Part shown: one piece after another, positions 6,268-23,641 of the stretch
Numbering within the stretch: the stretch's first letter is position 1
Layout: each line of letters starts with the position of its first letter
DNA from: an uncultured Ignavibacteriales bacterium
GTDB lineage: Bacteria > Zixibacteria > MSB-5A5 > GN15 > JAAZOE01
Direction: 5' to 3'
Assembly (NCBI GenBank): GCA_964526635.1
Contig: CAZGLR010000003.1
Coordinates: forward strand, 8,186-72,185
Length of the DNA stretch: 64,000 bases
Translations under genes and position numbers: made by a program
Notes under the pieces: model-generated
The model's input: the letters and a program-made list of their open reading frames with translations, nothing else
What the model was told of the DNA's origin: nothing
The model's database searches: none

Positions 6268-7301
6268 TACTCGCGCTCCTTGAGACGTTTAAGGACCTCC
6301 TTGGATTCTTCCAGACGTTCAATAAGCTCTTTGCTCTTTTCGCCCAGGAAGCGTTCGAACTCTCTGGAGTCCAATGGAGCGAGATAGTCCTTCAATTGCT
6401 TGTGCAAAGCATCGCGGAATGCAAGATCACGGCTGGCCATTTTACTTCGAGCTTTCTCTACCAATGGTTTCCAATGAGCCTGACTTTCAAACTCAGCGAA
6501 TAGCTCATCAACCTCCCAAGAACTAAGTTTGCGCCCCACGCTCTTGTAGGCGTCTTCGAGAACTTTCGCAAATCCGTATTCATATGCAGAAACCAGATCG
6601 AGAATTTCCGAATAGAATGTATCTCTGACTTTGTCGCTTTCCTGTAGCCGTAGTATTTTCCGTTACTCCTGTGCGTTCTCCTTGAAAATGCTCACGTAAA
6701 TCTTGTTCGTATAGGCGGGATATTTGAAATTGCCCATGTCAACGTAGTCTCGCAGGGCATCAGTGAATTCCTTGCGATAATTCTCTTCCTTGAAATAGGA
6801 GATTATGAAATCTTCATCCCTCTGATTAATATACTTTGTGCCGCCGCCGGTTCTCTGATTGATTGTGTCGATTACAATGTCCAGAATGGCCTGGCGCAGA
6901 ATGCGGGCGCGCTCACTCTCGGTAATGAGCATGGCAAGATTAAGAAATGCCCGAAAATCGAATATCCCCAGCATAGTGGTCTTGTGCAAAGTTTTGCCTA
7001 CGAAATCTGTTTCGTTACCAAACTGCTTTTTGACAGCTATTTTATAGTCCTGCAAGGACTTGCCTCGCAGAATCTCGTAACCGTTTTGCTTGAGCTCAGA
7101 TTCGAATTTCGAGAGGTAATTGTCGATTGTCCGTGGCTCAACTTCAAAGAACTCAGCGACTTGCTCTTTCAAAAGCGTTAGCTTGCCTTGGAATGCAATT
7201 CCTTGCAACTTCGTAGCTTTTTTGATCTCTTCAACGGCGTAGGGATTGTTGAGAATATTCTGGCGGTCAACATCTGATTTGGTCAGGTCTTTACTCATCA
7301 T
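6267..7301 (-). pseudogene. Putative DNA-binding protein partnered with the Doc gene, interrupted by an in-frame TAA
   Basis: ORFs 6663..7301 and 6267..6539 are in the same frame. Reading through TAA 6663-6665 gives continuous ...ENAQE*RKILRLQESDKVRDTFYSEILDLVSAYEYGFAK... Confidence 0.75.
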
Positions 7302-7914
7302 TACCCCCCACGCCGTGCGGAATACTATTTGACGGGTGGCCCGACAATGCTATGCATTGCCGGTTCCCGTTTGCGGCTTTATCATAATCACTACAGTCAA
7401 TTATTGCAACAAATGGGTTTTGTGGGAAATCAAAAGCAAACAATCCCGGCCGAAACCGACAGGTGGCCCGCTGTAAACTTCTGCGGCGGGTTCCAGCCAT
7501 AAGGGCGATGAATTCAACTCATTAGTTTACATCCATCTCATCGGCAGGAAACCGCCCATTGCTACGCAACGGGCGGGCCACCCGGCCTGTCTTTCCCATC
7601 ACCCATCCTGAATCAATGGTACATTTGTCATCGCCCATCCCGCATCGTTTCCAGCAAATCTGCTTGACCGCCCGACATTTGACCGTATACTGTACATATT
7701 CGGGTAATGACCGGATGATTGACTTTTTTGTATGACGGTCCCACGAGGATCGACGGTTGTTGCTGCGGATATAGTCAGAGACGTACCCAAATGGCCCCGA
7801 ACAAGCGGTCGGGCTCTATCTAAAGTGAAGCCCGGTGCCGATGTATGGTACATACGGTGAAGTATCTTCAGTGTCTGAGACAGCTTTGCCGAAACGCGGA
7901 TTAGACTCTGACTG

Positions 7915-8487
7915 ATGACCCAGCGCTCGAAACACAATATCGATTCTTTGATTGCCCGCTGCATCGAGGGCGACGACAGCGCCTGGCATGATCTCATAGA
8001 CCTGATCGCGCCGATGGTGTTTGCTGTCTGCAAAAAAAGCCAGTTATCCCGTGATGAGAGCTTTGATATTTTCGGACAGGTCAGCCTGCAGTTGATCAAT
8101 ACCATTCCGACACTGAAATCGCCGGAAAAAATTATGAGTTTTGTAGCGACCATCACCCGCCGCCGGATATATAAGTTTTATCACCAGGTGATTCTGGAGG
8201 GGGTACGCGATGAGGATGCGCTTTATACCCTGCCGACCGATTCCCACGAGAATCCGGAAACTATCTACGAACTGAGTGAAAAGCGGGAAATGCTGCTGCG
8301 AGCGCTTAATAAACTAACGCCTCGGGAACGACGAATAATCACGCACCTGTTTTTCGATGAAAAAGAGCTGAGTTATGAGGAGATTGCGCAAAAAATGAAC
8401 ATCCCGGTATCATCGATCGGGCCGACCCGGGCCAAGGCGCTGATAAAACTGCGCCGTATCATGGCCTACAAGAGATTTAAATTATAG
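7915..8487 (+). CDS. ECF (sigma-70 group 4) RNA polymerase sigma factor
   Basis: Region 2-like 'LIARCIEGDDSAWHDLIDLIAPMVFAVC...DIFGQV' and region 4 'LNKLTPRERRII...LSYEEIAQKMNIPVSSIGPTRAKALIKLR'. Confidence 0.93.
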   Translation: MTQRSKHNIDSLIARCIEGDDSAWHDLIDLIAPMVFAVCKKSQLSRDESFDIFGQVSLQLINTIPTLKSPEKIMSFVATITRRRIYKFYHQVILEGVRDEDALYTLPTDSHENPETIYELSEKREMLLRALNKLTPRERRIITHLFFDEKELSYEEIAQKMNIPVSSIGPTRAKALIKLRRIMAYKRFKL

Positions 8488-8518
8488 GTATTTTCGCGAA
8501 CCAAAATCGAGACCTATA
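8487..8518 (+). promoter_or_regulatory. Putative ECF promoter, copy 1 (GGTATTTT-N16-GACC-TATA)
   Basis: Overlaps the sigma gene stop codon and ends 14 nt before the ATG at 8533. The same motif and spacing recur at 13349, 13526 and 16713. Confidence 0.65.
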
Positions 8519-8532
8519 ATTAGGATAAGAGT

Positions 8533-9117
8533 ATGAGCAACAAGATCGACATATACAGGCTGATAATCGATTTAATCGAGGGGCGGTTGTCCGGCACAGA
8601 AGCCCGGCGGCTGAAAAAACTCATCGATGAAGATCCTGCGCTCCAGCAGATTATGGACATGGCCACGCGTCTGCGCGCCGAGGGACAGCATATCGGATGG
8701 TCAGATATTCGCGGGGCCGTACATGATTTATTGGATCGCCAGTTACGACAGCATAAATCGCGGCAGGGCAATCTCCGCAAGGCATTCCTGACCTTTGATT
8801 CAAGTTTGTTACCCCTGCCCGAGGGTATACGGCCGGCGACTGTCAGTGAACGGCGCCTGAAATTTCAAATCGAAGATGATGTCCTGGAAATCGGTCTTTA
8901 TCCGTTGTCACTCAATTCATATGAGGTCATCGGCCAGCTTCCCGATACCTTTGCCGATACCGGGCTCTCGGTCGCCATTCGCTGTGGCAACCGGATGATT
9001 GCCGGTGACATCGGCGAATTCGGGGTATTCCATTTTGATCGTGTCCCGACGGGACCATGTAGTATTGTTATCTCGTCCGGCAAAAAGGCAGAAATCGAGG
9101 TCGATCTGGAGATATGA
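8533..9117 (+). CDS. Putative soluble anti-sigma factor / CHAT substrate
   Basis: N-terminal helix pattern 'LIIDLIEGRLSGTEARRLKKLIDEDPALQQ' resembles anti-sigma domains without Zn ligands. Beta-rich C-terminus 'GEFGVFHFDRVPTGPCSIVI'; no TM segment; lies between sigma and CHAT and overlaps the CHAT start (ATGA). Confidence 0.6.
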   Translation: MSNKIDIYRLIIDLIEGRLSGTEARRLKKLIDEDPALQQIMDMATRLRAEGQHIGWSDIRGAVHDLLDRQLRQHKSRQGNLRKAFLTFDSSLLPLPEGIRPATVSERRLKFQIEDDVLEIGLYPLSLNSYEVIGQLPDTFADTGLSVAIRCGNRMIAGDIGEFGVFHFDRVPTGPCSIVISSGKKAEIEVDLEI

Positions 9118-11873
9118 TCACTTCCGCGGACATAAAACGCCTGGGGAAAAAAACTGCCCTCGATCGGTTTATCGCAGTGCAATGCAATAACGACCCGGAC
9201 GTACTGATCGGCTATATCAACACTGCACTAAACGATTTGCTCAATACCGATCTGGCGGCGGCCAGGAAATTACTCCAGCCGATACAGCGCATTTTTGGTC
9301 ACTTATCGGAAGACAATCTGGGCCGCCTTCGCGCTATCGAGGCCCGGCTGGAGCATCGCTGTGGACGAAGCAAACAGGCGGTAAAAAAATATACCGAGGC
9401 AATAACGCATTTAACCCGTGTCCGCAACTACGATAGCGCCGCTCGGGCTAAAATCGGCCTTATGGATGCCTACATGTATCTGGGGCAATACACCGACGCC
9501 CTGGACGTCGGGAAAAAAGCCCTGATATATTTTCGGCGCAAAGACGATATTCGGGCCGCCCGGGTGATGACCAACATCGGCAATGTGTATCATCGGCTGG
9601 ACCGCAATAATTTGGCCCTGCGGTACTACGAACGGGCACGACGGTGGTTTGAAAAGGACGGCGGCATTGCCCTGGCGATTGTCGATTACAATCGAGCCAA
9701 TATATACGCCAATCTCAATCAACTCGATCGGGCTGAAAAGCTGTATCGCCAGGCGGCACAGTTGTACCGACAGCACAATCTCGATCTCGCCGCGGTCAAA
9801 GTCGAGTATTCGCTGGCCTATACCTATTTTCTCCAGGGAAAGTATAGTCATTCCCTGACTGTCTTTGAGCGCGTCCTTGAATCATTTTCGACTCTGGGTG
9901 ATGACAATTCGGCCAATACCACCCGTCTTGACCTTGCCGAAATAAACAATCAGTTGAACCAGTACAGTATTGCAGCGTCGCTTGGCACTCAGGCCCTGGA
10001 CCATTTTCGCAAAACCGGCTTGAGGTACGAAGAGGCCAAAACCTGCTTCTTTATGGCCGAGGCGATGATCGGCATGGGTGACGTCCGTGAAGTCAGCCAT
10101 TACCTGCGCAAGGCCGGATCATTGTTCGATCGGGAACGGAACACGCTCTGGCTGGGCATGATCGAACTGCTGCGATGCCGTCTTCAACTGCATCGGCGCC
10201 GTTTTGCGGAAGCCTTAAAGACAGCGACTCGTGCCCGCGCGTATTTCCATCAAAGCGGCGACAAACGGCGCGGGCGTGATGTGGATATCCTGAGGCTGCA
10301 GGCGGCGATCGCCGCGGGCGCCTCGCCGCAGACAATAATTTCCGGCAAACGCCTCCTGAAGAAAAATCTGGTGGCTTCTCAACAGTATCGTGTCCTGGAT
10401 GCACTGGGGCAGTATCATATGAAAAAACAGGATCCTGAAACTGCGTATGATTACTATTCACGGGCTGTTGATGTCATCGAGCACATGCTGTCGGAACTGG
10501 CTGTAGATGAAACTCAGTTTTTCTTCGCCGCCGACAAATACGGCACATATCTCAATGCCACCGACTGCCTTCTGCGGCTGAATCGACCGCAGGATGCCTT
10601 TATGCAGCATTCCCGGGCACTGTCGATGTTGAACCAAAAAAAGTATTCATCGGGAATTATGCGCGATAAAATCCCCGGGCATCTGCTGGAAAAGCACGAT
10701 CAGCTGAGAGCACGGCTCAAGCAGTTAAATCGCCCGCCGGATACAATGACACGCAGTCTGGCGACGGTTTCGCAACAACATGATCTTGAGCAGCAGTTGT
10801 GGGCGACTGAAAGACGGATGCGGGCGTATGTAATTCCGGAGATTGACAGGCCGGGACCAGGCGCATTGAAACTATCTGATTATGCGGCTTGTCTCGCCGA
10901 CAACGATGCTCTGGTTACATTTATTGGTGATGAAAGCAAGCTCGGCGCGTTCATTGTCAGACCTTCAGGCATCAGATATGTTCACTTGCCGTCATCGTCT
11001 CCCCGCCTCCGGTCGATCGTACGGGAACTGCAGTTTCTCATGGAGAAAAGCGTCTATTCAGGAACGTCGGGAGCACAAACCCGGGCGGGGATCGACGGCT
11101 ATCTGGCGCGGCTCAAGGACATTCTTATCGAACCGCTGGAGTTGGGTGATGATATCGAGCGGGTGATCTTTCTGGTCGATGGTATCTTTGCGCAATTGCC
11201 GTATTCGGCGATTTATGATGATTATCACGGCCGCTTGTGTCAAAGATTTACCATCAACCTGATCACCAATCCCCTTGATTTAAAAAATCACAGCGGGACG
11301 ACGCTGCATTTGAATACGAAACGCTGGGCCGTCTTTGCGGCGTCATCGCCCGGATTGCCGATGGTTGAGTCAGAGGGAAACTCAATTGCCGGTCTCCATT
11401 CGCGTTCAGTACTGTTTTCGGGCGAACGAGCCACCTGCCGACAATTGCGGCAAGAACTGGGCGGCAATAATGGCGCTGTACATATTGCAGCTCACGCGTC
11501 GCGGGCCTCGGAAAATCCGTTGTTTTCGCGTATCTTATTAAACGATGGGCCGTTTTTCCCCTTCGACCTGTTCGAGGCCGGGGTAACAGCCGATGTGGTC
11601 AGTTTATCTGGTTGTCAGACTGCGGCTCCCGGTATATATTATGGTAACTCGTTTAGTCTGGCCAAAGTATTTTATCAGAGTGGAGCGCGCTTTGTCCTGG
11701 CGTCTCTCTGGTCCGTATCAGATAAACTGAGTTCAGCCTTTATGATCAGGTTCTATACAGCACTCAGTGAAGGTGGAGATGTCACCAGTGCATATACGGC
11801 GGCGATGAATGAAATTAGAATGCACAATTCCAATCCGGCCTGTTGGAGCCCCTATATACTCCTTGGTTTGTAG
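9114..11873 (+). CDS. TPR-CHAT (caspase-like) protease
   Basis: Long TPR array followed by a CHAT domain with both catalytic motifs, VHIAAHA (His) and LSGCQT (Cys), plus 'LASLWSVSD' and 'NPACWSPYILLG'. No signal peptide. Confidence 0.93.
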   Translation: MITSADIKRLGKKTALDRFIAVQCNNDPDVLIGYINTALNDLLNTDLAAARKLLQPIQRIFGHLSEDNLGRLRAIEARLEHRCGRSKQAVKKYTEAITHLTRVRNYDSAARAKIGLMDAYMYLGQYTDALDVGKKALIYFRRKDDIRAARVMTNIGNVYHRLDRNNLALRYYERARRWFEKDGGIALAIVDYNRANIYANLNQLDRAEKLYRQAAQLYRQHNLDLAAVKVEYSLAYTYFLQGKYSHSLTVFERVLESFSTLGDDNSANTTRLDLAEINNQLNQYSIAASLGTQALDHFRKTGLRYEEAKTCFFMAEAMIGMGDVREVSHYLRKAGSLFDRERNTLWLGMIELLRCRLQLHRRRFAEALKTATRARAYFHQSGDKRRGRDVDILRLQAAIAAGASPQTIISGKRLLKKNLVASQQYRVLDALGQYHMKKQDPETAYDYYSRAVDVIEHMLSELAVDETQFFFAADKYGTYLNATDCLLRLNRPQDAFMQHSRALSMLNQKKYSSGIMRDKIPGHLLEKHDQLRARLKQLNRPPDTMTRSLATVSQQHDLEQQLWATERRMRAYVIPEIDRPGPGALKLSDYAACLADNDALVTFIGDESKLGAFIVRPSGIRYVHLPSSSPRLRSIVRELQFLMEKSVYSGTSGAQTRAGIDGYLARLKDILIEPLELGDDIERVIFLVDGIFAQLPYSAIYDDYHGRLCQRFTINLITNPLDLKNHSGTTLHLNTKRWAVFAASSPGLPMVESEGNSIAGLHSRSVLFSGERATCRQLRQELGGNNGAVHIAAHASRASENPLFSRILLNDGPFFPFDLFEAGVTADVVSLSGCQTAAPGIYYGNSFSLAKVFYQSGARFVLASLWSVSDKLSSAFMIRFYTALSEGGDVTSAYTAAMNEIRMHNSNPACWSPYILLGL

Positions 11874-11893
11874 GTAATGCGAGGTGTATCACT

Positions 11894-13327
11894 ATGACTA
11901 CCAAATTTAATATTCTCATTTTTGTCGTGGTGGCTGCATGTGTTGTGAACACAGCAGGCTTCGCGCGAGAAAATCCTGTAACGGGACAAGCCATCGCGCG
12001 GCTGATTGCATCGTCAGATCCTGACAGCCTCGAGGGAACACTCGACGAATTCGGAGCCGAATTTGTCGACAGTATTGTCACGGAAAATTTCTACCTGATT
12101 GATTTCCCGCCCGAAGTCCCGATCGAACAGATCCTCCAGGCATTGCAGAACAACCCGCATGTCGATTTTGCCGAACCCAATTTTGAGTTGGAATTGCCGG
12201 AAACTTTCCAGATCAGTATTTCGTTTCCCGACGACAATCCCCCGCCCCATGTCTCGGGCATCAGTCCGCCGGAATTTTACGGACAGCCGGCAATGTACTC
12301 GATAGGCGTGGATTCGGCACAATTGCTGTCAGAGGGCAGCGGCATGCATGTGGCAATAATTGATAATGGCCTTGATTTTTCACATCCGCTATTCGCTGGC
12401 GCCCTGGGCGGTCCCGGCTTCGATTATCTGGATAATGATGACAATGCCGGTGAGGACACCGGCGCAGTCTATGGTCATGGCACATTTGTTGCCGGGTTGA
12501 CCGTCCTGACCGCTCCCGGCTGCCAGATTACGCCCCTGCGGGCATTCAATGGCGACGGGTACGGCACCAGCTTTGCCGTGGCACAATCGATTATCCATGC
12601 GATTGACCACGGTATGGATATTATAAACATGAGTTTCGGGCTTTTCGAATACAGCCAGATGATCGCGGCAACCTGCAGCAGCGCGGTCGATGCCGGAATT
12701 ATTCTGGTGGCGGCGGCCGGCAACGGCGGCTCCGATCAGCCGGCCTATCCGGCAGCGCTGCCTGGCGTTATAGCAGTATCGGCGGTTGATACGACTGAAT
12801 TGCTGGCGGCTTTTTCAAACTACGGCGATCATATCGACATATGCGCACCGGGGGTTGATCTTTACAGTGCTCTGGCCGGTGAATTCGAATGGGGTACCTG
12901 GAGCGGGACGTCGTTTGCAGCCCCTATCGTCAGCGGCGTTTGTGCTCTGGCCCAGGCGGTTAATGGCAGCTTTTCGCCCTATGAGATGGAAGCACATCTT
13001 CGGCAAACAGCGTCGATAGATCTGGCCTGGGGGACGATTGACCCGCCGAGTACATTTTATGGCCATGGTTTACTGGACGCCTATTCAGCGACTTTGAACG
13101 CTTCAAATACTGTCACCCAGACCGATTGTGGCGACATCAACGGCGACGAACAGGTCAACACCGGCGATGTGATCTTCCTTATTTCTCATATATTCGGAGG
13201 TGGTCCGGGACCGGAGCCCCCGGCACAGGGCGATGTCAACTGTGATTTGATGCTCAACGTCAGTGATCCGGTGCATCTGATCGGATATATTTTCAGGGGT
13301 GGTCCCGATCCGTGTTGTGCTGAATAA
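11894..13327 (+). CDS. Secreted S8 subtilase with C-terminal dockerin-like domain
   Basis: Signal peptide; catalytic triad motifs IIDNG, HGTFVAG, GTSFAAP; C-terminal CGDINGDEQVNTGDVIFLI...GDVNCD...CC. Confidence 0.92.
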   Translation: MTTKFNILIFVVVAACVVNTAGFARENPVTGQAIARLIASSDPDSLEGTLDEFGAEFVDSIVTENFYLIDFPPEVPIEQILQALQNNPHVDFAEPNFELELPETFQISISFPDDNPPPHVSGISPPEFYGQPAMYSIGVDSAQLLSEGSGMHVAIIDNGLDFSHPLFAGALGGPGFDYLDNDDNAGEDTGAVYGHGTFVAGLTVLTAPGCQITPLRAFNGDGYGTSFAVAQSIIHAIDHGMDIINMSFGLFEYSQMIAATCSSAVDAGIILVAAAGNGGSDQPAYPAALPGVIAVSAVDTTELLAAFSNYGDHIDICAPGVDLYSALAGEFEWGTWSGTSFAAPIVSGVCALAQAVNGSFSPYEMEAHLRQTASIDLAWGTIDPPSTFYGHGLLDAYSATLNASNTVTQTDCGDINGDEQVNTGDVIFLISHIFGGGPGPEPPAQGDVNCDLMLNVSDPVHLIGYIFRGGPDPCCAE

Positions 13328-13348
13328 ATCCACCTGCCGTAAATAAAT

Positions 13349-13376
13349 GGTATTTTAGGGGCATTTTTTAGACACC
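13349..13376 (+). promoter_or_regulatory. Putative ECF promoter, copy 2 (GGTATTTT-N16-CACC)
   Basis: Exact motif and spacing, located just after the subtilase stop codon. Confidence 0.55.
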
Positions 13377-13420
13377 ATTCTGTGGATTGCCATTACGTGG
13401 CACTCTCTGACTATTAAGTG

Positions 13421-13452
13421 AGAGGCGAGATTTTTTCTCGTCTCTTTTTTTT
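13421..13452 (+). terminator. Intrinsic terminator
   Basis: AGAGGCGAGA / TCTCGTCTCT stem followed by a T run. Confidence 0.75.
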
Positions 13453-13525
13453 GTCTGTGCCAAGCCGGCTTACGGAGGCTATTGATCAGACTTAGGCATA
13501 AAACTCTCAAGAAATTAGGATTTTG

Positions 13526-13557
13526 GGTATTTTTTCCGGTTGTCCCTCACACCTGTA
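13526..13557 (+). promoter_or_regulatory. Putative ECF promoter, copy 3 (GGTATTTT-N16-CACC-TGTA)
   Basis: Exact motif, about 150 nt upstream of the ATG at 13707. Confidence 0.65.
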
Positions 13558-13706
13558 TATGATTGTACACCTTATTAGTACATTACCGCACATAAGATGA
13601 CCGGGCCATCCTGGACCTGACCGGCCCGGTCATCACAAGAAAACTATGAAACTAAAATATAACAGACACCTGGAACATTCAGTCTCTCAAACATAGGAGG
13701 ATTAAC

Positions 13707-14168
13707 ATGAAAAGGCTGTTAGCCTTAATTGCCATGCTCGGACTTCTGGCGGCTCCCGTTTTCGCCGATGATTGTATTGAAATCGATTTTGAGGCGGAAC
13801 CCGATATTAACGTCGGCGTTGTTTACTTCTTTTTCGGTGAAGTCATCAATTGCAGCGATGAAGCCGGTGAAGTGTTTTTCTCGCTGACGCTTGAATTCGA
13901 AGGCATGAGCTATGATCTGCCGGAGTTCAGCGTTTATATGGGTGCGGGTGAAACCGTCAGCCGATCGTTCCCATTTGTCATCCCCCCGATTTTCCCGGAG
14001 GGTGAAGTCACCATCACCGTTACTGCCACCAAGGGTGAGGCCACTGACACCGAGACGATTTATCTCACCGTCGTGCACCCGAATAGCGGCGACGCCATAC
14101 CCCGCAAGGGTGACATTCCCAACCGGCTGGAAAGCGAAACTGCCACAAGTAACGCCGGCAGCAAGTAA
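13707..14168 (+). CDS. Small secreted acidic protein with a probable Ig-like fold
   Basis: RBS AGGGAGG; signal peptide MKRLLALIAMLGLLAAPVFA; alternating beta-strand pattern; two Cys. Confidence 0.8.
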   Translation: MKRLLALIAMLGLLAAPVFADDCIEIDFEAEPDINVGVVYFFFGEVINCSDEAGEVFFSLTLEFEGMSYDLPEFSVYMGAGETVSRSFPFVIPPIFPEGEVTITVTATKGEATDTETIYLTVVHPNSGDAIPRKGDIPNRLESETATSNAGSK

Positions 14169-14204
14169 ACGATACTAACCGTATTTTCTCTCGTGCTTAT
14201 GCAG

Positions 14205-14242
14205 AAACGGGACAGACGCCTCTCCGGCGTTGTCCCGTTTTT
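14205..14242 (+). terminator. Intrinsic terminator-like hairpin
   Basis: AAACGGGACA-GACGCC / GGCGT-TGTCCCGTTT followed by TT. Confidence 0.65.
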
Positions 14243-14262
14243 AAACGTATCCGGAGCATCTC

Positions 14263-16611
14263 ATGAAACAATATTATGCCCTACTGACGCTTTGTGTTTG
14301 TGTACTGGCCGGCCTGTGCCCGGCACTGGATCTTCAGTTTACCGTTTCCGGCGAAGCTCCCGGTGATCAGCTCGGCGATGCTGTCACGGCAGTTGATTTC
14401 AATGGCGACGGATACGATGATATCGTCATCGGCGCGCCCGCTTCGGATGCCAATGGAACCTCTTCGGGTAAAGTATATCTCTATCTCGGCGGCCCCGGCG
14501 CTGATGATATCGCGGATTTTGAATTCGTAGGTCCCGATGGCTCGTTTTTCGGCGCGGCTATTGCCGCCGCCGGTGATTTCAATAATGACACCTATCCCGA
14601 TTTAATCATCGGCGCACCATATTATTCGGCCATCGCCACCCGGGCGGGGGCTGCCTTTATTTACTTCGGAGGACCATCGGCTGATACCACGGCCGACCTG
14701 GTGTTATTTGGCGGAACCAGTCTGGATTATTATGGTACAGCCGTAGCCGGTGGATTTGACTTCAATGGCGACACTATTGATGATATCGCAATAGGTGCAT
14801 ATAAAGCCGAATATGATACTCTTGACGATGCCGGACTGGTAGCGGTGCACCTGGGTTCGGCGGCGGTTGACACGGTCGCGGATATTATCCTGACCGGCGG
14901 CGCCGATGGCGAACGCTTTGGCTTTGCCCTGACCGGCGGCAATTTCAATGGTGACGCCTTTGATGATATCGCAGTCGGTGCCTACAGTTATGACGACTGG
15001 ACTATAAACCTGGGACGGGTATATCTATTCAACGGCGGTGCGACACCTGATTCAATCTATGATTTTGCTGTTGGTGGCGAAGCCCAGGGATCCAGTTTCG
15101 GATATAGCGTAGCTGCTGGCGACGTCAATAATGATACCTATGATGATCTTCTTGTCGGTGCTCAGGCGTTTATCATCGGCCAGGCGGCGGCCGGCAAAAT
15201 ATATTTGTTTGAGGGCAGTGTGTCTATGGACACTCTTGCCGATTTTTCCTATACCCGAGGCATCGCCGATCCGGATAATCTCGGTTTCGATGTATCTACC
15301 GGAGTTGATATTACCGGTGACGCTATTGATGATTTCTGGGCGGGGTACCCGGGCGGCGACGGCGGTATCCTGTTTGAGAGCAGCAGTTACGTCATCGATA
15401 CCACCCTCGGCGGATCATCGGGCGAAAATTTTGGCCACGCCGCCGGGCTGGCCAGGGGCTTTTTTGGCAATCAAAAACAGGCCGTAGCAGTCGGTGCCCA
15501 CGCCTATGATAGTTTCCGCGGCCGCACCTATTTTTATCTTCGGGATAACTCCAGTGGCGCCAATCAGCCGCCGGTACTGGATCCGATTGGACCACAAGAG
15601 GTTGTCGAAGGAAACACTTTAGACTTCACAGTAACTGCCTCGGATCCCGACGGCGCCGATCCGGCACTGTCGGCCTCACTGCCACTGCCCGATGGCGCTT
15701 TTTTTAACGAAGCCACCGGTATCTTCGACTGGACCCCGGATACCACTCAGGCCGGCATATATAATGTTACGTTTTTTGCCGACGACGGTATCGACCGAGA
15801 TTCAGAAATCGTCACCATAACTGTCATAAATTATACCGGCGAAAACCTTCCCCCGGTCCTTGACCCGATTGGTCCCAAAGCGATCGCTGAGTTATTGCAT
15901 TTAAGTTTTACTGTCACAGCCTCGGATCCCGATGGCCCGACTCCGGCACTTTCTACCTCCCTCCCGCTGCCCGATGGCGCCACCTTCAATACCGGCAGCG
16001 GCGTATTCAGCTGGATCCCCGATACTACGCAGGCCGGCGTCTATGAAGTGACGTTTTATGCCGATGATGGCCAGGTCAAAGATTCTGAAATAGTGACGAT
16101 TACTGTCACCAATAATACCAACATACCGCCGGAGCTAAATCCGATTGGCGGTAAAACCATTGACGTCGACAGTACCTTAAATTTTGACGTGACGGCCTCT
16201 GACCCCGACGGTCCTACCCCGATGATTTTTGCCTCGACCCTGCCCGCTGGGGCGACTTTATCGAGCAATGGCGATGGCTCGCGGACATTTAACTGGATAC
16301 CTGACTCGACACAAGCGGGATCACATAGTGTGACGTTTTACGCCTTCGATGGTCAGCTTACTGATAGCGAGCTGGTGGTAATTCAGGTGATTGGTCCGAT
16401 AGTGTGTGGCGATGCCAACAGCGACTACACGGTCAATGTCGGCGATCCGGTATTTCTGATCAATTATGTTTTCAAGGGCGGGCCGGCAGCGGTACCCTTG
16501 TGTCGGTCGGATGCTAATGGCGACACGTTTGTAAACGTCGGCGATGCGGTGGCATTGATCAATTTTGTCTTCTCTGGTGGCCCGGCCCCGGTGGAACCGT
16601 GTTGTCCATAG
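14263..16611 (+). CDS. Secreted FG-GAP (integrin-alpha-like) propeller protein with three Ig/cadherin-like repeats and a dockerin-like tail
   Basis: Repeated DFNGDGYDDIVIGAP-type motifs; three 'NxPPxLxPIG...TASDPDG...LPxGA...FxWxPD' units; C-terminal CGDANSD...CCP. Confidence 0.9.
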   Translation: MKQYYALLTLCVCVLAGLCPALDLQFTVSGEAPGDQLGDAVTAVDFNGDGYDDIVIGAPASDANGTSSGKVYLYLGGPGADDIADFEFVGPDGSFFGAAIAAAGDFNNDTYPDLIIGAPYYSAIATRAGAAFIYFGGPSADTTADLVLFGGTSLDYYGTAVAGGFDFNGDTIDDIAIGAYKAEYDTLDDAGLVAVHLGSAAVDTVADIILTGGADGERFGFALTGGNFNGDAFDDIAVGAYSYDDWTINLGRVYLFNGGATPDSIYDFAVGGEAQGSSFGYSVAAGDVNNDTYDDLLVGAQAFIIGQAAAGKIYLFEGSVSMDTLADFSYTRGIADPDNLGFDVSTGVDITGDAIDDFWAGYPGGDGGILFESSSYVIDTTLGGSSGENFGHAAGLARGFFGNQKQAVAVGAHAYDSFRGRTYFYLRDNSSGANQPPVLDPIGPQEVVEGNTLDFTVTASDPDGADPALSASLPLPDGAFFNEATGIFDWTPDTTQAGIYNVTFFADDGIDRDSEIVTITVINYTGENLPPVLDPIGPKAIAELLHLSFTVTASDPDGPTPALSTSLPLPDGATFNTGSGVFSWIPDTTQAGVYEVTFYADDGQVKDSEIVTITVTNNTNIPPELNPIGGKTIDVDSTLNFDVTASDPDGPTPMIFASTLPAGATLSSNGDGSRTFNWIPDSTQAGSHSVTFYAFDGQLTDSELVVIQVIGPIVCGDANSDYTVNVGDPVFLINYVFKGGPAAVPLCRSDANGDTFVNVGDAVALINFVFSGGPAPVEPCCP

Positions 16612-16712
16612 TGTAGTGATCATTCTCGTTTTAGTTTAATTGTTAGTGGCTGACAGCCTCCGGGGTGTCATGCGATAATTCTTTCACCTTTTTTAATAAT
16701 TCTGAATTATCA

Positions 16713-16744
16713 GGTATTTTTTTCATTCGTATTTCGCACCCTAT
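16713..16744 (+). promoter_or_regulatory. Putative ECF promoter, copy 4 (GGTATTTT-N16-CACC-CTAT)
   Basis: Exact motif, about 210 nt upstream of the ATG at 16951. Confidence 0.65.
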
Positions 16745-16950
16745 ATATGACAAGGGGGAGAAGACACTGCCATATTGTAGGGGTTTCGATGATTCTGTGC
16801 CTTCGCCGCTATACAACTCGGCTCGCTCGCACATATAAAAGCATGTATTTATCACATCTGAATGACATGATCGTCCCCCCATAATTGTCATCAGGTGCGC
16901 ACAAACCCACTGACTTACTACCTTTTTCAGTTTTTCATAGGAGATACAGT

Positions 16951-18831
16951 ATGAAGAAGCATAATTCCGTCTCACGTATCATTCTTTACAGCCTATTAGC
17001 TCTGGCCCTTACCGCCTCGATCAGTCTATGGGTCGGCTGTAGTGAAGAAAGCGGTATTGCCGATGTATCCAGCCAGTCCAATCAACTGACCCTGCTCAAC
17101 GAGGAAAATCCCCGGGTGCAGGCGGTCACACGCATTCAGGATTTGTCGACCGAAGCATTATTCTCACATCCCGACGTGGTTGGAACCGGGACAGGTCTTG
17201 ACGACAACGGCAACCCCACAGTAGTCGTTTATACGACCGAGGAGGTCACCCAGTACGGAAGCATGAGTGTCGAGCAGCTGCAAACCTCCAAAGCTCTGGG
17301 TGCGATTCCCGAATCGATTGAAGGACTGCCGGTGAAAGTGAAAGTGACCGGCAAATTTGTCGTTTACGCCGATCCCACGGCCCGCTTCAGCCGACCGGTA
17401 CCGATTGGCGTGTCAACCGGCCATCCTGATATCACCGCCGGCACAATCGGCTGCCGCGTAATTGACGGTTCAGGCAATGTCTATGCCCTGAGTAATAATC
17501 ATGTCTATGCCAATATCAACTCCGCCAGCATCGGCGACAATGTACTCCAGCCCGGTCCGACCGACGGGGGTACCGATCCGGCGGATGCTATTGGCACGCT
17601 CTATGATTATGAGTATATCGAAATGGGGGGGGCGTACAACTACATCGACGCCGCTATTGCCGCAGTAACAACTTCAACGGTTGGCTATTCGACGCCATCG
17701 GGCGATGGCTACGGCACACCCAGTTCGTCTATCAAGTCGGCCACCATTGGCATGAAAGTCCAGAAGTATGGCCGTACCACCGGCTGGACTTTCGGCGAAG
17801 TAGCCGAATTAAACGTGACGGTCAATGTCTGCTATGTGCCGCGCGGTCCATTCAGCTGCGCCGAGTACGCAACCATGACTGATCAGATCGGTATCACCCC
17901 GGGAACATTCAGTGCCGGTGGTGACTCCGGATCTCTTATCGTTACTGATGATGGAAATAAGAACCCGGTGGGGCTTCTTTTTGCGGGTAGCTCGGATCGC
18001 ACTCTGGCAAATCGTATTGATCTGGTTCTGAACCGCTTTAATGTGACAGTCGATGATGGCAGTGGCGGCGGACCGACCAACAATCCGCCGACAGCCGACT
18101 TCACCTATACAACTTCGGAGTTGACGGCGTATTTCACTGATCAGAGCACCGATTCCGACGGCAGTATCGCGTCCTGGAATTGGAACTTCGGTGATGGCTC
18201 AACCTCGACCGCCCAGAATCCGTCGCACACCTATGGTACCGATGGTACCTATACGGTTTCGCTGACGGTTACTGATAACGACGGTGCGACCGATAACACC
18301 TCACAAAGTGTGACTGTCTCCGGCAGCACCACCAATAATCCGCCGACAGCCGACTTCACCTACACGACTTCGGATCTGACGGCGTATTTCACTGATCAGA
18401 GTACTGATTCCGACGGCAGTATCGCGTCCTGGAATTGGAACTTCGGTGATGGCTCTTCATCAACCGCACAGAATCCGTCGCATGCCTATGGTACCGATGG
18501 CACCTATACGGTTTCGTTGACAGTTACTGATAACGACGGTGCGACTGATAATACCTCGCAGAGTGTGACTGTCTCCAGCGGCGGCACCGGCGGTATTACC
18601 CTCTCGGTGGTTGGCTATAAGGTTCGCGGTGTCAAGCATGCTGATCTCACCTGGAGCGGTGCTGACGGAACCGATGTGGAAATCTATCGCGATGGCACAT
18701 TGATTGCGACGACGACCAATGATGGTTCCTACACCGACAATTCCGGTCAGCGTGGTGGCGGATCGTTCACCTACAAAGTATGTGAAATCGGCGGTTCGGT
18801 CTGTTCGAATCAGGTAACGGTGACTTATTAA
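16951..18831 (+). CDS. Secreted (probably lipoprotein) trypsin-like serine protease with prodomain and two PKD domains
   Basis: RBS AGGAG; hydrophobic leader ending in WVGC; triad motifs LSNNHV, IDAA, GDSGS; two 'WNWNFGDG' PKD units. Confidence 0.88.
   Translation: MKKHNSVSRIILYSLLALALTASISLWVGCSEESGIADVSSQSNQLTLLNEENPRVQAVTRIQDLSTEALFSHPDVVGTGTGLDDNGNPTVVVYTTEEVTQYGSMSVEQLQTSKALGAIPESIEGLPVKVKVTGKFVVYADPTARFSRPVPIGVSTGHPDITAGTIGCRVIDGSGNVYALSNNHVYANINSASIGDNVLQPGPTDGGTDPADAIGTLYDYEYIEMGGAYNYIDAAIAAVTTSTVGYSTPSGDGYGTPSSSIKSATIGMKVQKYGRTTGWTFGEVAELNVTVNVCYVPRGPFSCAEYATMTDQIGITPGTFSAGGDSGSLIVTDDGNKNPVGLLFAGSSDRTLANRIDLVLNRFNVTVDDGSGGGPTNNPPTADFTYTTSELTAYFTDQSTDSDGSIASWNWNFGDGSTSTAQNPSHTYGTDGTYTVSLTVTDNDGATDNTSQSVTVSGSTTNNPPTADFTYTTSDLTAYFTDQSTDSDGSIASWNWNFGDGSSSTAQNPSHAYGTDGTYTVSLTVTDNDGATDNTSQSVTVSSGGTGGITLSVVGYKVRGVKHADLTWSGADGTDVEIYRDGTLIATTTNDGSYTDNSGQRGGGSFTYKVCEIGGSVCSNQVTVTY
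18076..18576 (+). repeat. Near-identical tandem duplication with a 255-bp period, encoding two PKD domains
   Basis: accaa(c/t)aatccgccgacagccgacttcacc starts at 18076 and 18331; differences are mostly synonymous. Confidence 0.9.
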
Positions 18832-18868
18832 CCGGAATCTGAAGTCCAAAAGTACTTTTTGATAGATT

Positions 18869-18903
18869 CACGAGCCCCTATATTGTGGGGGCTCGTGTTT
18901 TTT
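18869..18903 (+). terminator. Intrinsic terminator
   Basis: CACGAGCCCC / GGGGCTCGTG stem followed by TTTTTT. Confidence 0.8.
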
Positions 18904-18917
18904 ATGGGTGACTTATT

Positions 18918-19139
18918 ATGCCAAAAAGAGATATCGCAATTGTCCTCAGTGAACACACGCCGAAGTTACTGACCTTACCGGGTGTGGTCGGGACAGGCGT
19001 GGGATCATCAGATGGGACGCCATGCATTTCCGTGTTTGTGCATGAATTGACTGATGATATCCATGGTGCAATACCGACCGAGATCGAGGGGCACCCGGTG
19101 ATCATTACCGAAACCGGCCAGTTCCGCGCCGGATTATAA
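18918..19139 (+). CDS. Stand-alone homologue of the upstream protease prodomain (putative inhibitor)
   Basis: PGVVGTGVG...AIPTEIEGHPVIITETGQF aligns with PDVVGTGTG...AIPESIEGLPVKVKVTGKF of the 16951 protein. Confidence 0.75.
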   Translation: MPKRDIAIVLSEHTPKLLTLPGVVGTGVGSSDGTPCISVFVHELTDDIHGAIPTEIEGHPVIITETGQFRAGL

Positions 19140-19295
19140 CTGCCCATACCCGAATCAATCTGCACCGTACTCGCCATTTCGCTGAAAAAATTATCCATTT
19201 TCAGACAAAGGCTTATCCAAAATATATCGGGTCCCGCCTGTTCATCTGACGATATTAATTTATTCACGACTTTTTTGCAGTCGGCAATAAATATA

Positions 19296-19328
19296 GATAT
19301 TTTTTCATATTCGAACTGCACACCTAAT
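19296..19328 (+). promoter_or_regulatory. Putative ECF promoter, variant copy 5 (GATATTTT-N17-CACC-TAAT)
   Basis: One mismatch and a spacer one base longer than the other four; about 240 nt upstream of the ATG at 19566. Confidence 0.5.
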
Positions 19329-19565
19329 AATAACAAAGGGGGGAATGACACTTCCTTCAATGGAGTATTCGTGTACCAGTATGCCTGCCTATCGGAGTCT
19401 TTACAGTCTAATTTCAAGAACAATTTCTTACCAATATATCTTCCCCATACTACACAAATAAACTCGATGCAAGAGAGGAGGATTGACACTTTAATCGAAT
19501 TTTGCCTTGGAGTTGGCAACAAAATCCCTACTGCGTTATAGCCCTTCACCGTCATCGGAGGAACA

Positions 19566-22268
19566 ATGAAAAAATTTGGAATTCTTTTTTTACTTCTTTT
19601 TCTAACTCTGGTCGTAACGTCATCGGCCGCCGAAAAGTTTATGAAGGTAGATCGTGATTTCACTATACCATCATTCGTAGGTTATGTGCAAAACCAGCTC
19701 ATTGTGGTTTTGAATGACGATGTAAGTGTTGATCATGCCCGCGATGTCCGTTCGCAGCGGGCGCTGTCGAATTACTCCGGTTTTGATCCTCTGGCCCAGC
19801 GTTTTGCCGTGGCCGATTCCCGGCCCCAGTTCGCCGGTGCCGATCGCAAAGCCGGTGCTCAGCAGCTTGCCCGGCATTATAAAGTAACAATCGGAAAAGG
19901 AACGATCGAAGAGGCCAAAGCTGCCTATGAGCGCAATCCGCAGGTTAAACGGGTTGAACTTATTGGTTTGCATACAACCTATGCGACGCCGAATGATACG
20001 TACTACGACAACCCGCCGGCGGAGTTTCCCTATGATCAATGGCATTATTGGGCCAATCACAGTGTCGATGCCGATCTGGCCTGGGATCTCAACTCCGGTT
20101 CGGAAACCGTGCTGGTGGGTATTCTCGATTCCGGAACCCGGTATTTTCACATAGACCTTGGCGGCAACAGCACGCAATGGGGACCGGGCGCACCATTTGC
20201 CGGCGGAAATATTTTCATCAACCCGAATGAAACTCCGGGTGATGGCGTAGATAACGACGGTAACGGTTATGTCGATGATGTTATCGGTTATGACTTTATT
20301 GAGACAACCGGTGGCATTGGCGGCGTTTCCTGCATCGATCAGGACTGTGGTACCAAGGATAATGATCCGGATGACGGCAACGGTCATGGTACTCATACCG
20401 CCGGTACGGTTGGTGCAATTACCAACAATGCCCGTCAGGTTGCCGGCGTTGCCGGTGGTTTCAGCGATGGGACGACCAGCGGCGTCGGTAATGGTGTAAA
20501 AATCGTGCCTTGCCGCATGGGCTACCATGCATCATATCGCGGCATGGTAACCGGTATCGTCGACATGGCTGCCGCCGCCGAAGCGATGTACTATATGGCT
20601 GACCTGGTGGACGCCGGTCATAACGTTGCCGCGATCAACTGCTCGTGGGGCAGTTCCAACAGTGGCGGTCTTGGTGCCGCCGCCGATTATCTGATTTCAC
20701 GTGATGTGGTGATTGTCGTGGCGGCGGGTAACAGCAATTCGACAAGCGCCAGTTATCTCGGTACGCGGGGTGACTGCCTTGACGTCGCCGCCACGGATAA
20801 AAACGGCAATGGCGCCTCGTTTACCAACTACGGTTCATGGGTCGATGTCGCCGCTCCCGGCGTGGAGATTCTGAGTACGTATCGCAATCCCGATGATTCC
20901 GATCCCGCGGCGCATTACATCGCGCTGCTCGACGGTACCTCGATGTCGGCCCCGCATGTCGTCGGTATTGTTGCATTGTTGGAATCCTGCAACCCGGCTC
21001 TGACAGCTGCCGACAAATTCAATCTGGTCGTCGGAAACACGACGCCATATTCCGACAGCCGCGATCTTGGTTCCGGTATTGCCAATGCCTATTTGGCCCT
21101 GCAGGCAGCCAATTGCAGCAGCACGTGTACGGAAACCACCCCGGTGGCCGATTTCAGCGGATCGCCGACCAGTGGTGATGCGCCGTTGTTGGTTGCATTT
21201 ACTGACCTGTCTACGAATAATCCCTCGTCATGGTCATGGGACTTCGGTGATGGCGGCACCTCGACCGCCCAGAATCCGAGTTATACCTATGATGTCGCGG
21301 GAACGTACACGGTTTCGTTGACGGCATCCAATTGTGCCGGCTCCAATATCGTAACCAAGACCGGTTACATCACGGTAAGCGAACCACCGTGCACCGAAAC
21401 CATTCCGGTGGCCGATTTCAGCGGCAGTCCGACCAGCGGCGATGCGCCATTGACGGTTACCTTTACGGATCTGTCGACGAATAATCCGTCGTCATGGTCA
21501 TGGGACTTCGGCGACGGTGGCACATCGACGGCGCAGAATCCGAGCTATACGTATAGCGCTGCCGGAACCTATACGGTCGCGCTGACGGCCGGTAACTGTG
21601 CCGGTTCAAACACGGTAACCAAGACAGATTACATCACGGTAACGCAGTCGCAGCAACAGGAAATGCATGTTCAAAACATCACTCTCACCCGTCAGGCGGC
21701 CGGTGGGCCAAATCGGGTCGCCGTTGCCACGGTCACAGTATATGATCAGGCCGGACTGCCAGTTTCGGGAGCGACTGTTTACGGCGTCTTCAATGCACCT
21801 AATACCAGTACCAAAACCGGTGTCACCAACAGTTCGGGTATCGCAACTATTCAATCCGATAAAACCCGTACGCCACCGGCTGATTGGTGTTTTGAAGTCA
21901 CCGATATTACCGCCACCGGATACGTGTACAACAGCACCGCCAATCTGGTTATTTACGCCTGCGAAAGCGGCTGGGTATATAAGATCGGTAATCCGACGAT
22001 ACTGCCGACTGAAATGGCGCTGAGCAACCATCCGAATCCGTTTAATCCCACGACGACAATCGGCTTCGCGTTGACGCAGGACACTCATGCACGGCTCGAT
22101 ATTTTCAATATCGCCGGGCAAAAAGTAGCCACTCTGGTTGACGAATATCTCACCGCCGGTGAGTATTCGGTTGAATGGGACGGCAGACATGTCGCCAGTG
22201 GCATCTATTTGTATCGCCTGAGCACTCTTGAAAGCAGTCAGACCAAAAAGATGGTTCTGATGAAGTAA
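19566..22268 (+). CDS. Secreted S8 subtilase with two PKD domains and a FlgD-Ig/T9SS-like C-terminal sorting domain
   Basis: Signal peptide; ILDSG, HGTHTAG, GTSMSAP; two WSWDFGDG repeats (264-bp period, 21126 and 21390); C-terminus 'NHPNPFNPTTTI...IFNIAGQKV...ASGIYLYRL...KKMVLMK'. Confidence 0.93.
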   Translation: MKKFGILFLLLFLTLVVTSSAAEKFMKVDRDFTIPSFVGYVQNQLIVVLNDDVSVDHARDVRSQRALSNYSGFDPLAQRFAVADSRPQFAGADRKAGAQQLARHYKVTIGKGTIEEAKAAYERNPQVKRVELIGLHTTYATPNDTYYDNPPAEFPYDQWHYWANHSVDADLAWDLNSGSETVLVGILDSGTRYFHIDLGGNSTQWGPGAPFAGGNIFINPNETPGDGVDNDGNGYVDDVIGYDFIETTGGIGGVSCIDQDCGTKDNDPDDGNGHGTHTAGTVGAITNNARQVAGVAGGFSDGTTSGVGNGVKIVPCRMGYHASYRGMVTGIVDMAAAAEAMYYMADLVDAGHNVAAINCSWGSSNSGGLGAAADYLISRDVVIVVAAGNSNSTSASYLGTRGDCLDVAATDKNGNGASFTNYGSWVDVAAPGVEILSTYRNPDDSDPAAHYIALLDGTSMSAPHVVGIVALLESCNPALTAADKFNLVVGNTTPYSDSRDLGSGIANAYLALQAANCSSTCTETTPVADFSGSPTSGDAPLLVAFTDLSTNNPSSWSWDFGDGGTSTAQNPSYTYDVAGTYTVSLTASNCAGSNIVTKTGYITVSEPPCTETIPVADFSGSPTSGDAPLTVTFTDLSTNNPSSWSWDFGDGGTSTAQNPSYTYSAAGTYTVALTAGNCAGSNTVTKTDYITVTQSQQQEMHVQNITLTRQAAGGPNRVAVATVTVYDQAGLPVSGATVYGVFNAPNTSTKTGVTNSSGIATIQSDKTRTPPADWCFEVTDITATGYVYNSTANLVIYACESGWVYKIGNPTILPTEMALSNHPNPFNPTTTIGFALTQDTHARLDIFNIAGQKVATLVDEYLTAGEYSVEWDGRHVASGIYLYRLSTLESSQTKKMVLMK

Positions 22269-22321
22269 GTCGTAAGTTGGTTTGGGCACAACAGGTACCT
22301 CTGCGCATGGAGGTCTCTGAC

Positions 22322-22364
22322 ACATCCCGGCGGTTCGCTCCTATACTGCCGGGATGTTTTTTTT
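22322..22364 (+). terminator. Intrinsic terminator
   Basis: ACATCCCGGC / GCCGGGATGT stem followed by a T run, between convergent genes. Confidence 0.75.
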
Positions 22365-22408
22365 ATGTAACATTTTCAATGAGGTGGGTAGGCGGGAACT
22401 TTACCGTA

Positions 22409-23641
22409 TTATGCTGTCATGTTGCGCCCGGCGATCCAGCCGGTGGTCCACGCGCTTTGGAAGTTGAAGCCGCCGGTGATGCCGTCGATATCGAGTATCT
22501 CCCCCGCAAAATATAATCCGGGGCAAATCCTGCTCTGCATCGTTCGAAAATCAACCTCCGAAAGTTTCACCCCCCCGCAAGTGACAAACTCCTCTTTGAA
22601 TTCGCCCTTGCCGCTGACTTTGAACTCTCCGCGTGTCAGTTGAGATACAATGGCGCGAACAGCAGTATTGCTCAGTTTGCTCCAGGTTGTTGCCTGATCG
22701 ATACCCTGCAGTTCGGCAATACGTTGCCAGAAGCGGCGCGGAATGTTCAACGGACTGCCCGAGAGCACGTGTTTTCGGGGATGCTCGGCTTTGTACGCCA
22801 GGAGCTCATGGTAATGCGCATCCGGCGACTGCTCCGGGCACAGGTTGATTTCCAAGGTGGCCTTATATTTCGCTTCGTTGAGCTCCCGTGCACCCCAGGC
22901 CGATAGCTTCAGCACCGCCGGTCCACTCAGTCCCCAGTGGGTTATCAGCATGGGGCCGGTCTCCTGCAATGTCGCGCCATTTACTGTTGTTAATGTCAAT
23001 TTTACCTGCTGAAAACTAAGGCCTGAAAGTCCGGTCAGTCTCGGATCGGATATCTTAAAGGTGAAAAGTGAGGGCACACAGGGAACAATAGTATGACCGA
23101 GCGCAGCCACAAGTTGATGGCCTCTCCGGTTGTTGCCAGTGGCCATCAGCACGCGATCATACCGCATCGTTGATTCGTCAGGAAAAGTCAGCTGGAAGAA
23201 CGATGTTTGACCGTCTTCGCTTCCCGCCGTAATGTCGCACACGCGGGCTCCCAGCTTGAGTATCACACCTCGCTTTGCGGCGGCGCGCAACAGGCACTCG
23301 ACAATTGTCTGCGAACTGTCGGTTACCGGAAACATCCGACCATCCGGCTCAGCTTTCAACGTTACGCCTTGGCCAGTAAACCAGGCCACCGTATCGCTCG
23401 CCTGGAAACGGCTGAAAGCGCCAAGCAACTCTCGTCCGCCACGAGGGTAGTTCTCTACAAGCAGTTTCGGTTCATAGCAGTAATGAGTGACGTTGCAGCG
23501 GCCTCCCCCCGAAATCAGAACCTTGTCGAGTGGCTGATGCGATGCCTCAAGCACATCAATAGATACTCCCGGCCCGGCTGATGTCGCCGTTATTGCCGCA
23601 AACATGCCGGCAGGACCTCCGCCGACGACAGCAATCCGCAT
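22409..23641 (-). CDS. HI0933/BaiN family flavoprotein
   Basis: GGGPAG, ISGGGRCNVT, FVTCGGV, GITGGFNFQSAWTTG. Confidence 0.93.
   Translation of the reverse strand: MRIAVVGGGPAGMFAAITATSAGPGVSIDVLEASHQPLDKVLISGGGRCNVTHYCYEPKLLVENYPRGGRELLGAFSRFQASDTVAWFTGQGVTLKAEPDGRMFPVTDSSQTIVECLLRAAAKRGVILKLGARVCDITAGSEDGQTSFFQLTFPDESTMRYDRVLMATGNNRRGHQLVAALGHTIVPCVPSLFTFKISDPRLTGLSGLSFQQVKLTLTTVNGATLQETGPMLITHWGLSGPAVLKLSAWGARELNEAKYKATLEINLCPEQSPDAHYHELLAYKAEHPRKHVLSGSPLNIPRRFWQRIAELQGIDQATTWSKLSNTAVRAIVSQLTRGEFKVSGKGEFKEEFVTCGGVKLSEVDFRTMQSRICPGLYFAGEILDIDGITGGFNFQSAWTTGWIAGRNMTA

Follow-up and report, generated by a model that had tools for sequence, protein, structure and literature searches.

A bipartite motif that recurs between the genes of a sigma factor-protease locus in an uncultured Ignavibacteriales bacterium (Zixibacteria in GTDB) is very probably the promoter of the ECF sigma factor encoded at the same locus (7915 to 8487), as judged from its conservation in related cassettes. 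The motif has a fixed orientation and a near-fixed spacer and lies upstream of co-oriented genes; its predicted −35 box is GTATTTT, and its predicted −10 box starts with (C/G)ACC. The regulon looks local, with candidates elsewhere in the genome not clearly above background. Throughout, the window is the whole 64,000-nucleotide stretch of DNA that was analyzed, coordinates are window positions, and features lie on the plus strand unless marked otherwise.

Genes of the locus

The sigma gene (7915 to 8487) encodes a 190-amino-acid protein of the ECF type, with sigma2 and sigma4 domains only. It matches TIGR02937 at 74.9 bits (cutoff, 42.9), ECF structures head a fold search with it, and it was aligned to 2q1z. 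Its recognition helix reads SSIGPTR, and its closest named homologues come from Zixibacteria. The next gene (8533 to 9117) encodes a soluble anti-sigma-like protein of 194 amino acids with no Pfam or NCBIfam match. Its structural model (pLDDT 86) predicts N-terminal helices, a C-terminal β-sandwich, and no membrane helix; a Foldseek search with this model gave no match at an E of ≤0.001. The N terminus aligns to the anti-sigma domains of MucA (Z 6.5), RsiW (Z 6.6), and RslA (Z 5.8), all middling scores. From this model, the protein is a probable inhibitor of the sigma factor.

A TPR-CHAT caspase-like protease of 919 amino acids follows (9114 to 11873; PF12770, E 2e-36), in which His794 and Cys834 are both present (motifs HIAAHA and LSGCQ). 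Behind it lies a subtilase with a dockerin-like tail (11894 to 13327; PF00082 and PF00404) that retains its Asp, His, and Ser motifs. Farther downstream, the locus encodes a 153-amino-acid protein with no Pfam match and, by eye, a signal-peptide-like N terminus (13707 to 14168); an FG-GAP/Ig/dockerin protein (14263 to 16611); a trypsin-like serine protease with PKD domains (16951 to 18831; SNNH, DAA, and GDSG motifs, with weak PF08192 and PKD matches); and a second subtilase with PKD domains and a C-terminal sorting-like domain (19566 to 22268; PF00082, PF18911, and PF18962). The FG-GAP/Ig/dockerin gene is without a full motif site of its own, and its membership in the regulon is uncertain. 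The DNA before it (14180 to 14242) carries a GTATTTT half-site that lacks a second box; behind the half-site come an inverted repeat and a run of T (14205 to 14242).

Two further open reading frames deserve mention. One of 73 amino acids (18918 to 19139) lies beyond the terminator of the trypsin-like gene. Visual comparison suggests a similarity to the pro-region of the trypsin-like protease (PGVVGTGVG versus PDVVGTGTG), and the product may act as an inhibitor in the manner of a free propeptide. The other, of 212 amino acids on the minus strand (6663 to 7301), continues in frame for at least 120 codons past a single stop (6300 to 7301) and looks like a broken gene; its first part has no Pfam or NCBIfam match.

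Motif copies and their frequency

An earlier note on this DNA, which defined the motif post hoc, reported four exact copies and one variant, and all five are present. Copy 1 (GGTATTTT-N16-GACC, 8487 to 8514) lies 46 nucleotides before the ATG of the anti-sigma-like gene, and copy 2 (GGTATTTT-N16-CACC, 13349 to 13376) lies behind the first subtilase gene. Copies 3 (13526 to 13553) and 4 (16713 to 16740), both GGTATTTT-N16-(C/G)ACC, precede the 153-amino-acid protein gene by 181 nucleotides and the trypsin-like gene by 238 nucleotides. The variant, copy 5 (GATATTTT-N17-CACC, 19296 to 19324), is found 270 nucleotides before the second subtilase gene. Each of the five points with its downstream gene, as the note had said. 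Its description of the copies as intergenic needs one qualification: the 8487 copy overlaps the sigma stop codon by one base, its initial G. A TA-rich element, claimed to follow most copies, takes the form of TATAAT behind the 8487 copy; it is absent at 13349, and in relatives the corresponding DNA is AT rich without a fixed consensus.

The estimate of about 0.02 strict matches per 64 kb agrees with the 178 matches counted in 151 genomes of the phylum, or about 1.2 per genome. With about one chance match expected per genome, a single match is uninformative and the signal lies in the clustering: the strict pattern has four matches on both strands of this 3,468,052-bp genome, all of them in this locus (8487 to 16713). 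The looser pattern G[GA]TATTTT-N15-18-SACC has 20. Outside open reading frames, SACC follows 4 of 53 GGTATTTT octamers at a spacer of 16 and 0 to 2 at every other spacer from 5 to 39. Inside open reading frames it follows none of 198 octamers at a spacer of 16. The leaders that contain the 16713 and 19296 copies align with each other (score 73, reached by 0 of 200 shuffles) and are therefore not independent, which leaves at most four independent copies among the five.

The note saw no good copy upstream of the sigma gene itself, and indeed no matrix match above 9 bits occurs at 7250 to 7960. A possible source of the sigma mRNA is a sigma-70-like promoter, TTGACC-16-TATACT (7664 to 7691), which agrees with the consensus at 10 of 12 positions; this is a consensus match only, in a region where 27 such sites were found against 17.5 expected. 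A sigma-70-like site also lies before the trypsin-like gene (16650 to 16679).

Conservation across related cassettes

At an E of ≤1e-15, the sigma factor has matches in 78 of the 151 genomes of the phylum. The cassette set (n = 101) comprises 100 of the listed sigma places, minus one that ends inside the sigma gene, plus the window and a paralogous cassette on contig C11 of the same genome. Fourteen sigma factors from a locus search with the single sigma proved unrelated, and none was kept in the set. The motif did not emerge from Gibbs sampling of the junction windows without a seed, and a seeded, masked matrix was used instead.

The junction between the sigma and anti-sigma-like genes carries the motif in most cassettes. 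One of four variant patterns occurs within a 112-nucleotide window at the sigma stop in 77 of 100 cassettes, compared with 0 of 92 control windows at the CHAT stop; these patterns were written after the junctions had been seen, and 23 of 101 junctions fit none of them. When the tested bases were masked, 72 of 101 junctions still scored at least 7 bits, against 3% of shuffles. Relative to the stop, the offset of the motif ranges between −48 and +17, a spread that rules out coding constraint as the explanation for its conservation. The variants are of the GTATT/SAC type (this locus), the GTATT/CTC type, the G(T/A)ACG/CTCTG type, and the G(G/T)ACT type; the family motif can be written G(T/A/G)A(T/C)-... 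N15-16 ...-(S)(A/T)C(Y), and the consensus at this locus is one variant of it.

Further copies follow the variant of their own cassette. Extra noncoding sites match the junction variant of their own locus in 58 of 72 cases, a count that includes the five concordant sites of this genome. With loci as the unit, 45 of 50 agree, whereas permutations give 15.9 on average and 28 at most, with the caveat that kin are not independent. Different variants coexist in 12 of 20 multicassette genomes, and in one genome (G086) two adjacent divergent sigma genes have different junction variants. Because extra copies follow the local variant and variants differ within genomes, the motif is very likely to be read by the local ECF sigma factor rather than by a genome-wide factor.

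Scans of the genome and of orthologous loci point the same way: the sites of this locus rank high in the genome, and orthologues of the exported proteases carry a site of their own locus's kind upstream, in 9 of 11 cases for the second subtilase and in 4 of 4 for the trypsin-like protease. The site of the small gene is poorly conserved and clear in one of four loci with full upstream sequence. Some relatives (L038, L042, L050, L060, and L095) have a motif site upstream of the sigma gene itself. Junction conservation, agreement with the local variant, and orthologue sites together support the proposal that the motif is a −35/−10 ECF promoter with an unusual consensus.

Gene order varies among the cassettes. 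In L034 (G086:C19), two divergent sigma-CHAT cassettes stand back to back with different promoter variants. L049 and L063 have their CHAT gene in inverted orientation, upstream of the sigma gene, and in L049 a motif copy points towards the CHAT gene.

Matrix scans and regulon extent

We built a first matrix from the sigma/anti-sigma junctions of 16 relatives only and applied it to all positions of the genome. Copies 1, 3, 4, 2, and 5 rank 1, 2, 9, 12, and 15 genome-wide; because training was anchored on GTATTTT, these ranks are independent of the originally described motif only in the −10 part and the spacing. Ranks 3 and 5 belong to the C11 cassette (G000:C11:33366-38975), which has paralogous sigma, anti-sigma-like, TPR-CHAT, and subtilase genes: GTATTTT-N15-GAC sites lie at its junction (rank 5) and behind its subtilase gene (rank 3). 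The same genome encodes a third CHAT system (G000:C10:15387-20141), made up of a further sigma-like gene, an HxxxCxxC-containing protein, and a CHAT protein of 1177 amino acids with a signal-like N terminus.

Under a second matrix, built from 26 relatives' sites, the window sites score 25.4, 24.9, 22.7, 19.1, and 17.7 bits. Eight non-ORF sites in the genome reach at least 18 bits with the real spacer, compared with 0 to 4 with wrong spacers. Taken alone, the weakest copies, at 19296 (17.7 bits) and 13349 (19.1 bits), are near this wrong-spacer background, and support for both comes from conservation.

A dispersed regulon was considered but is not claimed: 12 sites reach at least 16 bits with the real spacer, and wrong-spacer controls give 2 to 8. 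One high scorer, on contig C166, lies inside a gene start. Two candidate dispersed sites are on minus strands. The one at C124:415 scores 21.9 bits and precedes an unknown gene that is truncated where the contig ends; the other, at C58:5891, scores 16.9 bits and stands before a paralogue (44%) of the second subtilase.

Alternative explanations

We give hardly any credence to the view that the copies reflect chance or duplication in AT-rich intergenic DNA, picked out post hoc. In its favor, chance alone yields roughly one match in each genome, two leaders out of five are alike, and two copies are near background. Against it stand the motif's presence at 77 of 100 junctions and at none of 92 controls, the spacer-specific excess, and the top ranks under a matrix from other genomes. 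The sequence comparisons largely refute this reading. It is very unlikely that the motif is an operator (GGT...ACC taken as an inverted repeat) for another DNA-binding protein, or that it is an AT-rich element upstream of housekeeping promoters whose −10 box would be the TA-rich tail. Such a reading would fit the TATAAT after the 8487 copy and the sigma-70 match (9 of 12 positions) that overlaps the 19296 copy; however, the right arm is often CTCT or GACT in relatives, which is not the complement of the left arm, all five copies point with the downstream gene, and the tail has no fixed consensus. Moreover, variants differ between cassettes of one genome, which a genome-wide factor would not produce.

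A different question is whether the sites are read mainly, or also, by the paralogous sigma factor of the C11 cassette, which would make the regulon shared rather than private. Cross-talk is conceivable given the near-identical C11 sites under the same matrix, and in G086 the small-RNA unit of one cassette (see below) sits behind the variant of the neighboring sigma. Against this, both C11 sites have a spacer of 15, versus 16 in four of the five window sites; the two sigma factors are only 27% identical; and extra copies usually follow the variant of the local cassette. We regard a C11 reader as improbable and retain the adjacent ECF sigma factor as the reader of the motif.

A candidate small RNA behind the first subtilase

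The earlier note listed the 13349 copy together with the one before the small secreted gene. The copy is present, but a terminator-like hairpin (13420 to 13446) lies between it and the small gene, which has its own copy at 13526. From the sequence, a short RNA that stands alone is a more probable product of the 13349 copy than the mRNA of the small gene. The predicted transcript, a candidate small RNA of about 70 nucleotides (13383 to 13452), would consist of a 5′ hairpin, an unpaired seed, and an intrinsic terminator (13420 to 13452).

The motif occupies the same position behind the subtilase gene in the C11 cassette and in five other genomes (G141, G083, G086, G109, and G099). Behind it, all of these have the same series of elements (a short hairpin, then a conserved stretch of the TTCTTCCG type, then a terminator), spanning 70 to 87 nucleotides in total. 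In four of these loci a further terminator-like hairpin precedes the motif, which suggests that the RNA unit stands alone. In a seven-sequence alignment, 94.5% of cells pair. Both partners have changed in five pairs, of which the terminator holds four and the 5′ hairpin one. Divergence is greatest in the window copy, and the C11 copy is better conserved. Rfam covariance models gave no match at an E of ≤1 at 7000 to 23000. The strong matches of our own model of the RNA are confined to the sequences it was trained on, present in 5 of the 13 other genomes of the family; 13 weaker matches look like ordinary terminators without the motif and were set aside, as were two metagenome matches and two one-mismatch genome matches, all outside any cassette. 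Behind the subtilase genes of L049, L063, and L066, the motif is followed by a different conserved leader (GGCAGGT...CC-containing) that may be another structured RNA.

The seed of the candidate RNA is complementary to an 11-nucleotide stretch (7771 to 7781) in the presumed leader of the sigma gene, which ranks 8th of 2654 leaders; the C11 copy pairs with the leader of its own sigma gene (rank 62). For the two copies in this genome, 2 of 300 and 0 of 300 shuffles pair as well. Such pairing with the sigma leader is absent in the five other genomes, where 35 to 227 of 300 shuffles do as well. No RNA holder was among the matches listed. Translation of six RNA copies gives a short peptide resembling V-A-F-F-R-I/L-L-K-R; it is absent from the window copy and has no conserved start or stop, and a peptide-coding role is not favored on this comparison.

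Sigma residues and promoter bases

The recognition helix carries Gly169-Pro170 where 2q1z has Lys-Ser, positions that we take to be those numbered Arg171 and Ser172 in RpoE. According to the available portion of one study, these two RpoE positions set −35 specificity (PMC7776599). A Gly-Pro pair at specificity-setting positions would lead one to expect an unusual −35 box.

Across the cassettes, the fourth −35 base is C in 34 of 37 loci whose sigma has Asn166 and T in 33 of 35 with another residue there, and 47 of 51 loci with Glu84 have T in the second box; these remain raw associations with respect to residue-level coevolution, since a tree built without those regions yields 1 and 3 independent pairs (sign test, p = 1) and such a test has no power. 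The columns with the highest mutual information are mostly clade markers.

Discussion

In the mechanism that we propose by analogy with Csx29/Csx30/CASP-sigma, a promoter apart from the motif, possibly a housekeeping one, would supply the sigma factor, which the soluble anti-sigma-like protein of 194 amino acids would hold. The TPR-CHAT protease would sense a signal and cleave the anti-sigma-like protein, freeing the sigma factor. Free sigma would then transcribe the anti-sigma-like, CHAT, and subtilase genes from the internal promoter at 8487, resetting the switch without making more sigma; it would also produce the ~70-nucleotide RNA from 13349. The sites at 13526, 16713, and 19296 would serve the gene of the small exported protein and those of two more exported proteases. 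Inhibition, release by the CHAT protease, negative feedback, and an output of exported proteases and a small RNA are all inferred. A more ambitious reading, which we consider possible but lean against, is that the sigma factor transcribes its own small RNA, which feeds back on the switch, possibly via pairing with the sigma leader, and that a specificity code (Ser/Ala versus Asn166 and Glu versus Gln/Lys/Arg84, with promoter variants) separates paralogous protease switches within one cell.

By gene context, the locus resembles an ECF54-like protease-gated switch. The accessible text on ECF54 describes carboxypeptidase, subtilase, and CHAT genes in its context and proposes proteolytic control, for which it describes no experiment (PMC8999054), and the part available of a second paper gives no putative anti-sigma for this group and refers promoter predictions to its supplement (PMC7826278). 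The ECF sigma factor studied here likewise occurs with CHAT and subtilase genes in a conserved context. In contrast to ECF54, which these partial texts describe as actinobacterial and without an anti-sigma, its closest named homologues are from Zixibacteria, and a conserved anti-sigma-like gene follows the sigma gene. The predicted promoter lies after the sigma gene rather than before it. ECF54 contexts include a carboxypeptidase(-like) domain protein; the 194-amino-acid protein here has a C-terminal β-sandwich and no Pfam match. An actinobacterial homologue of the sigma factor (29.5% identity, E 2e-16) adjoins CHAT and subtilase genes, and a Streptomyces homologue has GTATCCA-N15-CTCTGT directly behind the sigma stop. 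In the literature covered we found no description of this promoter or RNA; the published ECF54 promoter prediction (PMC7826278 supplement), which lies outside that comparison, may already hold this motif. The Todor supplements contain no match for ECF54, CHAT, or GTATT.

Type III-E CRISPR systems, as the accessible part of one report presents them, combine the TPR-CHAT protein Csx29, the soluble inhibitor Csx30, and CASP-sigma, with three sigma motifs confirmed or predicted in their own locus (PMC10028731). To that extent the two systems share a TPR-CHAT protease, a soluble inhibitor or inhibitor-like protein, and a sigma factor resembling the ECF type. They differ in that the CHAT protein here scores 18.1 bits against the Csx29 family NF041237 (cutoff, 300), no Cas family was matched by any of 19 nearby open reading frames, and the outputs are predicted exported proteases. 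The Myxococcus xanthus DdvS/DdvA pair, an experimentally tested analogue, in the available text of its description likewise joins an ECF sigma factor, an anti-sigma, and a TPR-CHAT domain, with its own promoters P1 to P4 in one local island (PMC11506125). DdvA is described there as a single transmembrane protein whose CHAT domain is periplasmic and whose active site is incomplete, whereas here the anti-sigma-like and CHAT proteins are separate open reading frames (8533 to 9117 and 9114 to 11873), no membrane helix is modeled, and His and Cys are present. For the candidate RNA, the accessible passages on the SigAb-dependent small RNA SabS, which also cite the RpoE-dependent MicL (PMC11257525), offer a tested parallel of a small ECF regulon that includes a short stand-alone RNA. 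Unlike SabS and MicL, the candidate is predicted from sequence, has no Rfam match, and was found in one family only.

CHAT-linked ECF cassettes are common, as the sigma matches in about half of the phylum's genomes indicate, and in the literature that we found no signal or output is described for this kind of cassette. The newer parts are the variant code and the candidate small RNA, which, if true, is a further output invisible to gene annotation. A search that looks only at the DNA before sigma genes could miss a promoter placed behind the gene, as this one is predicted to be. With a defined promoter, four natural variants, and a list of targets, the switch becomes testable in a laboratory host.
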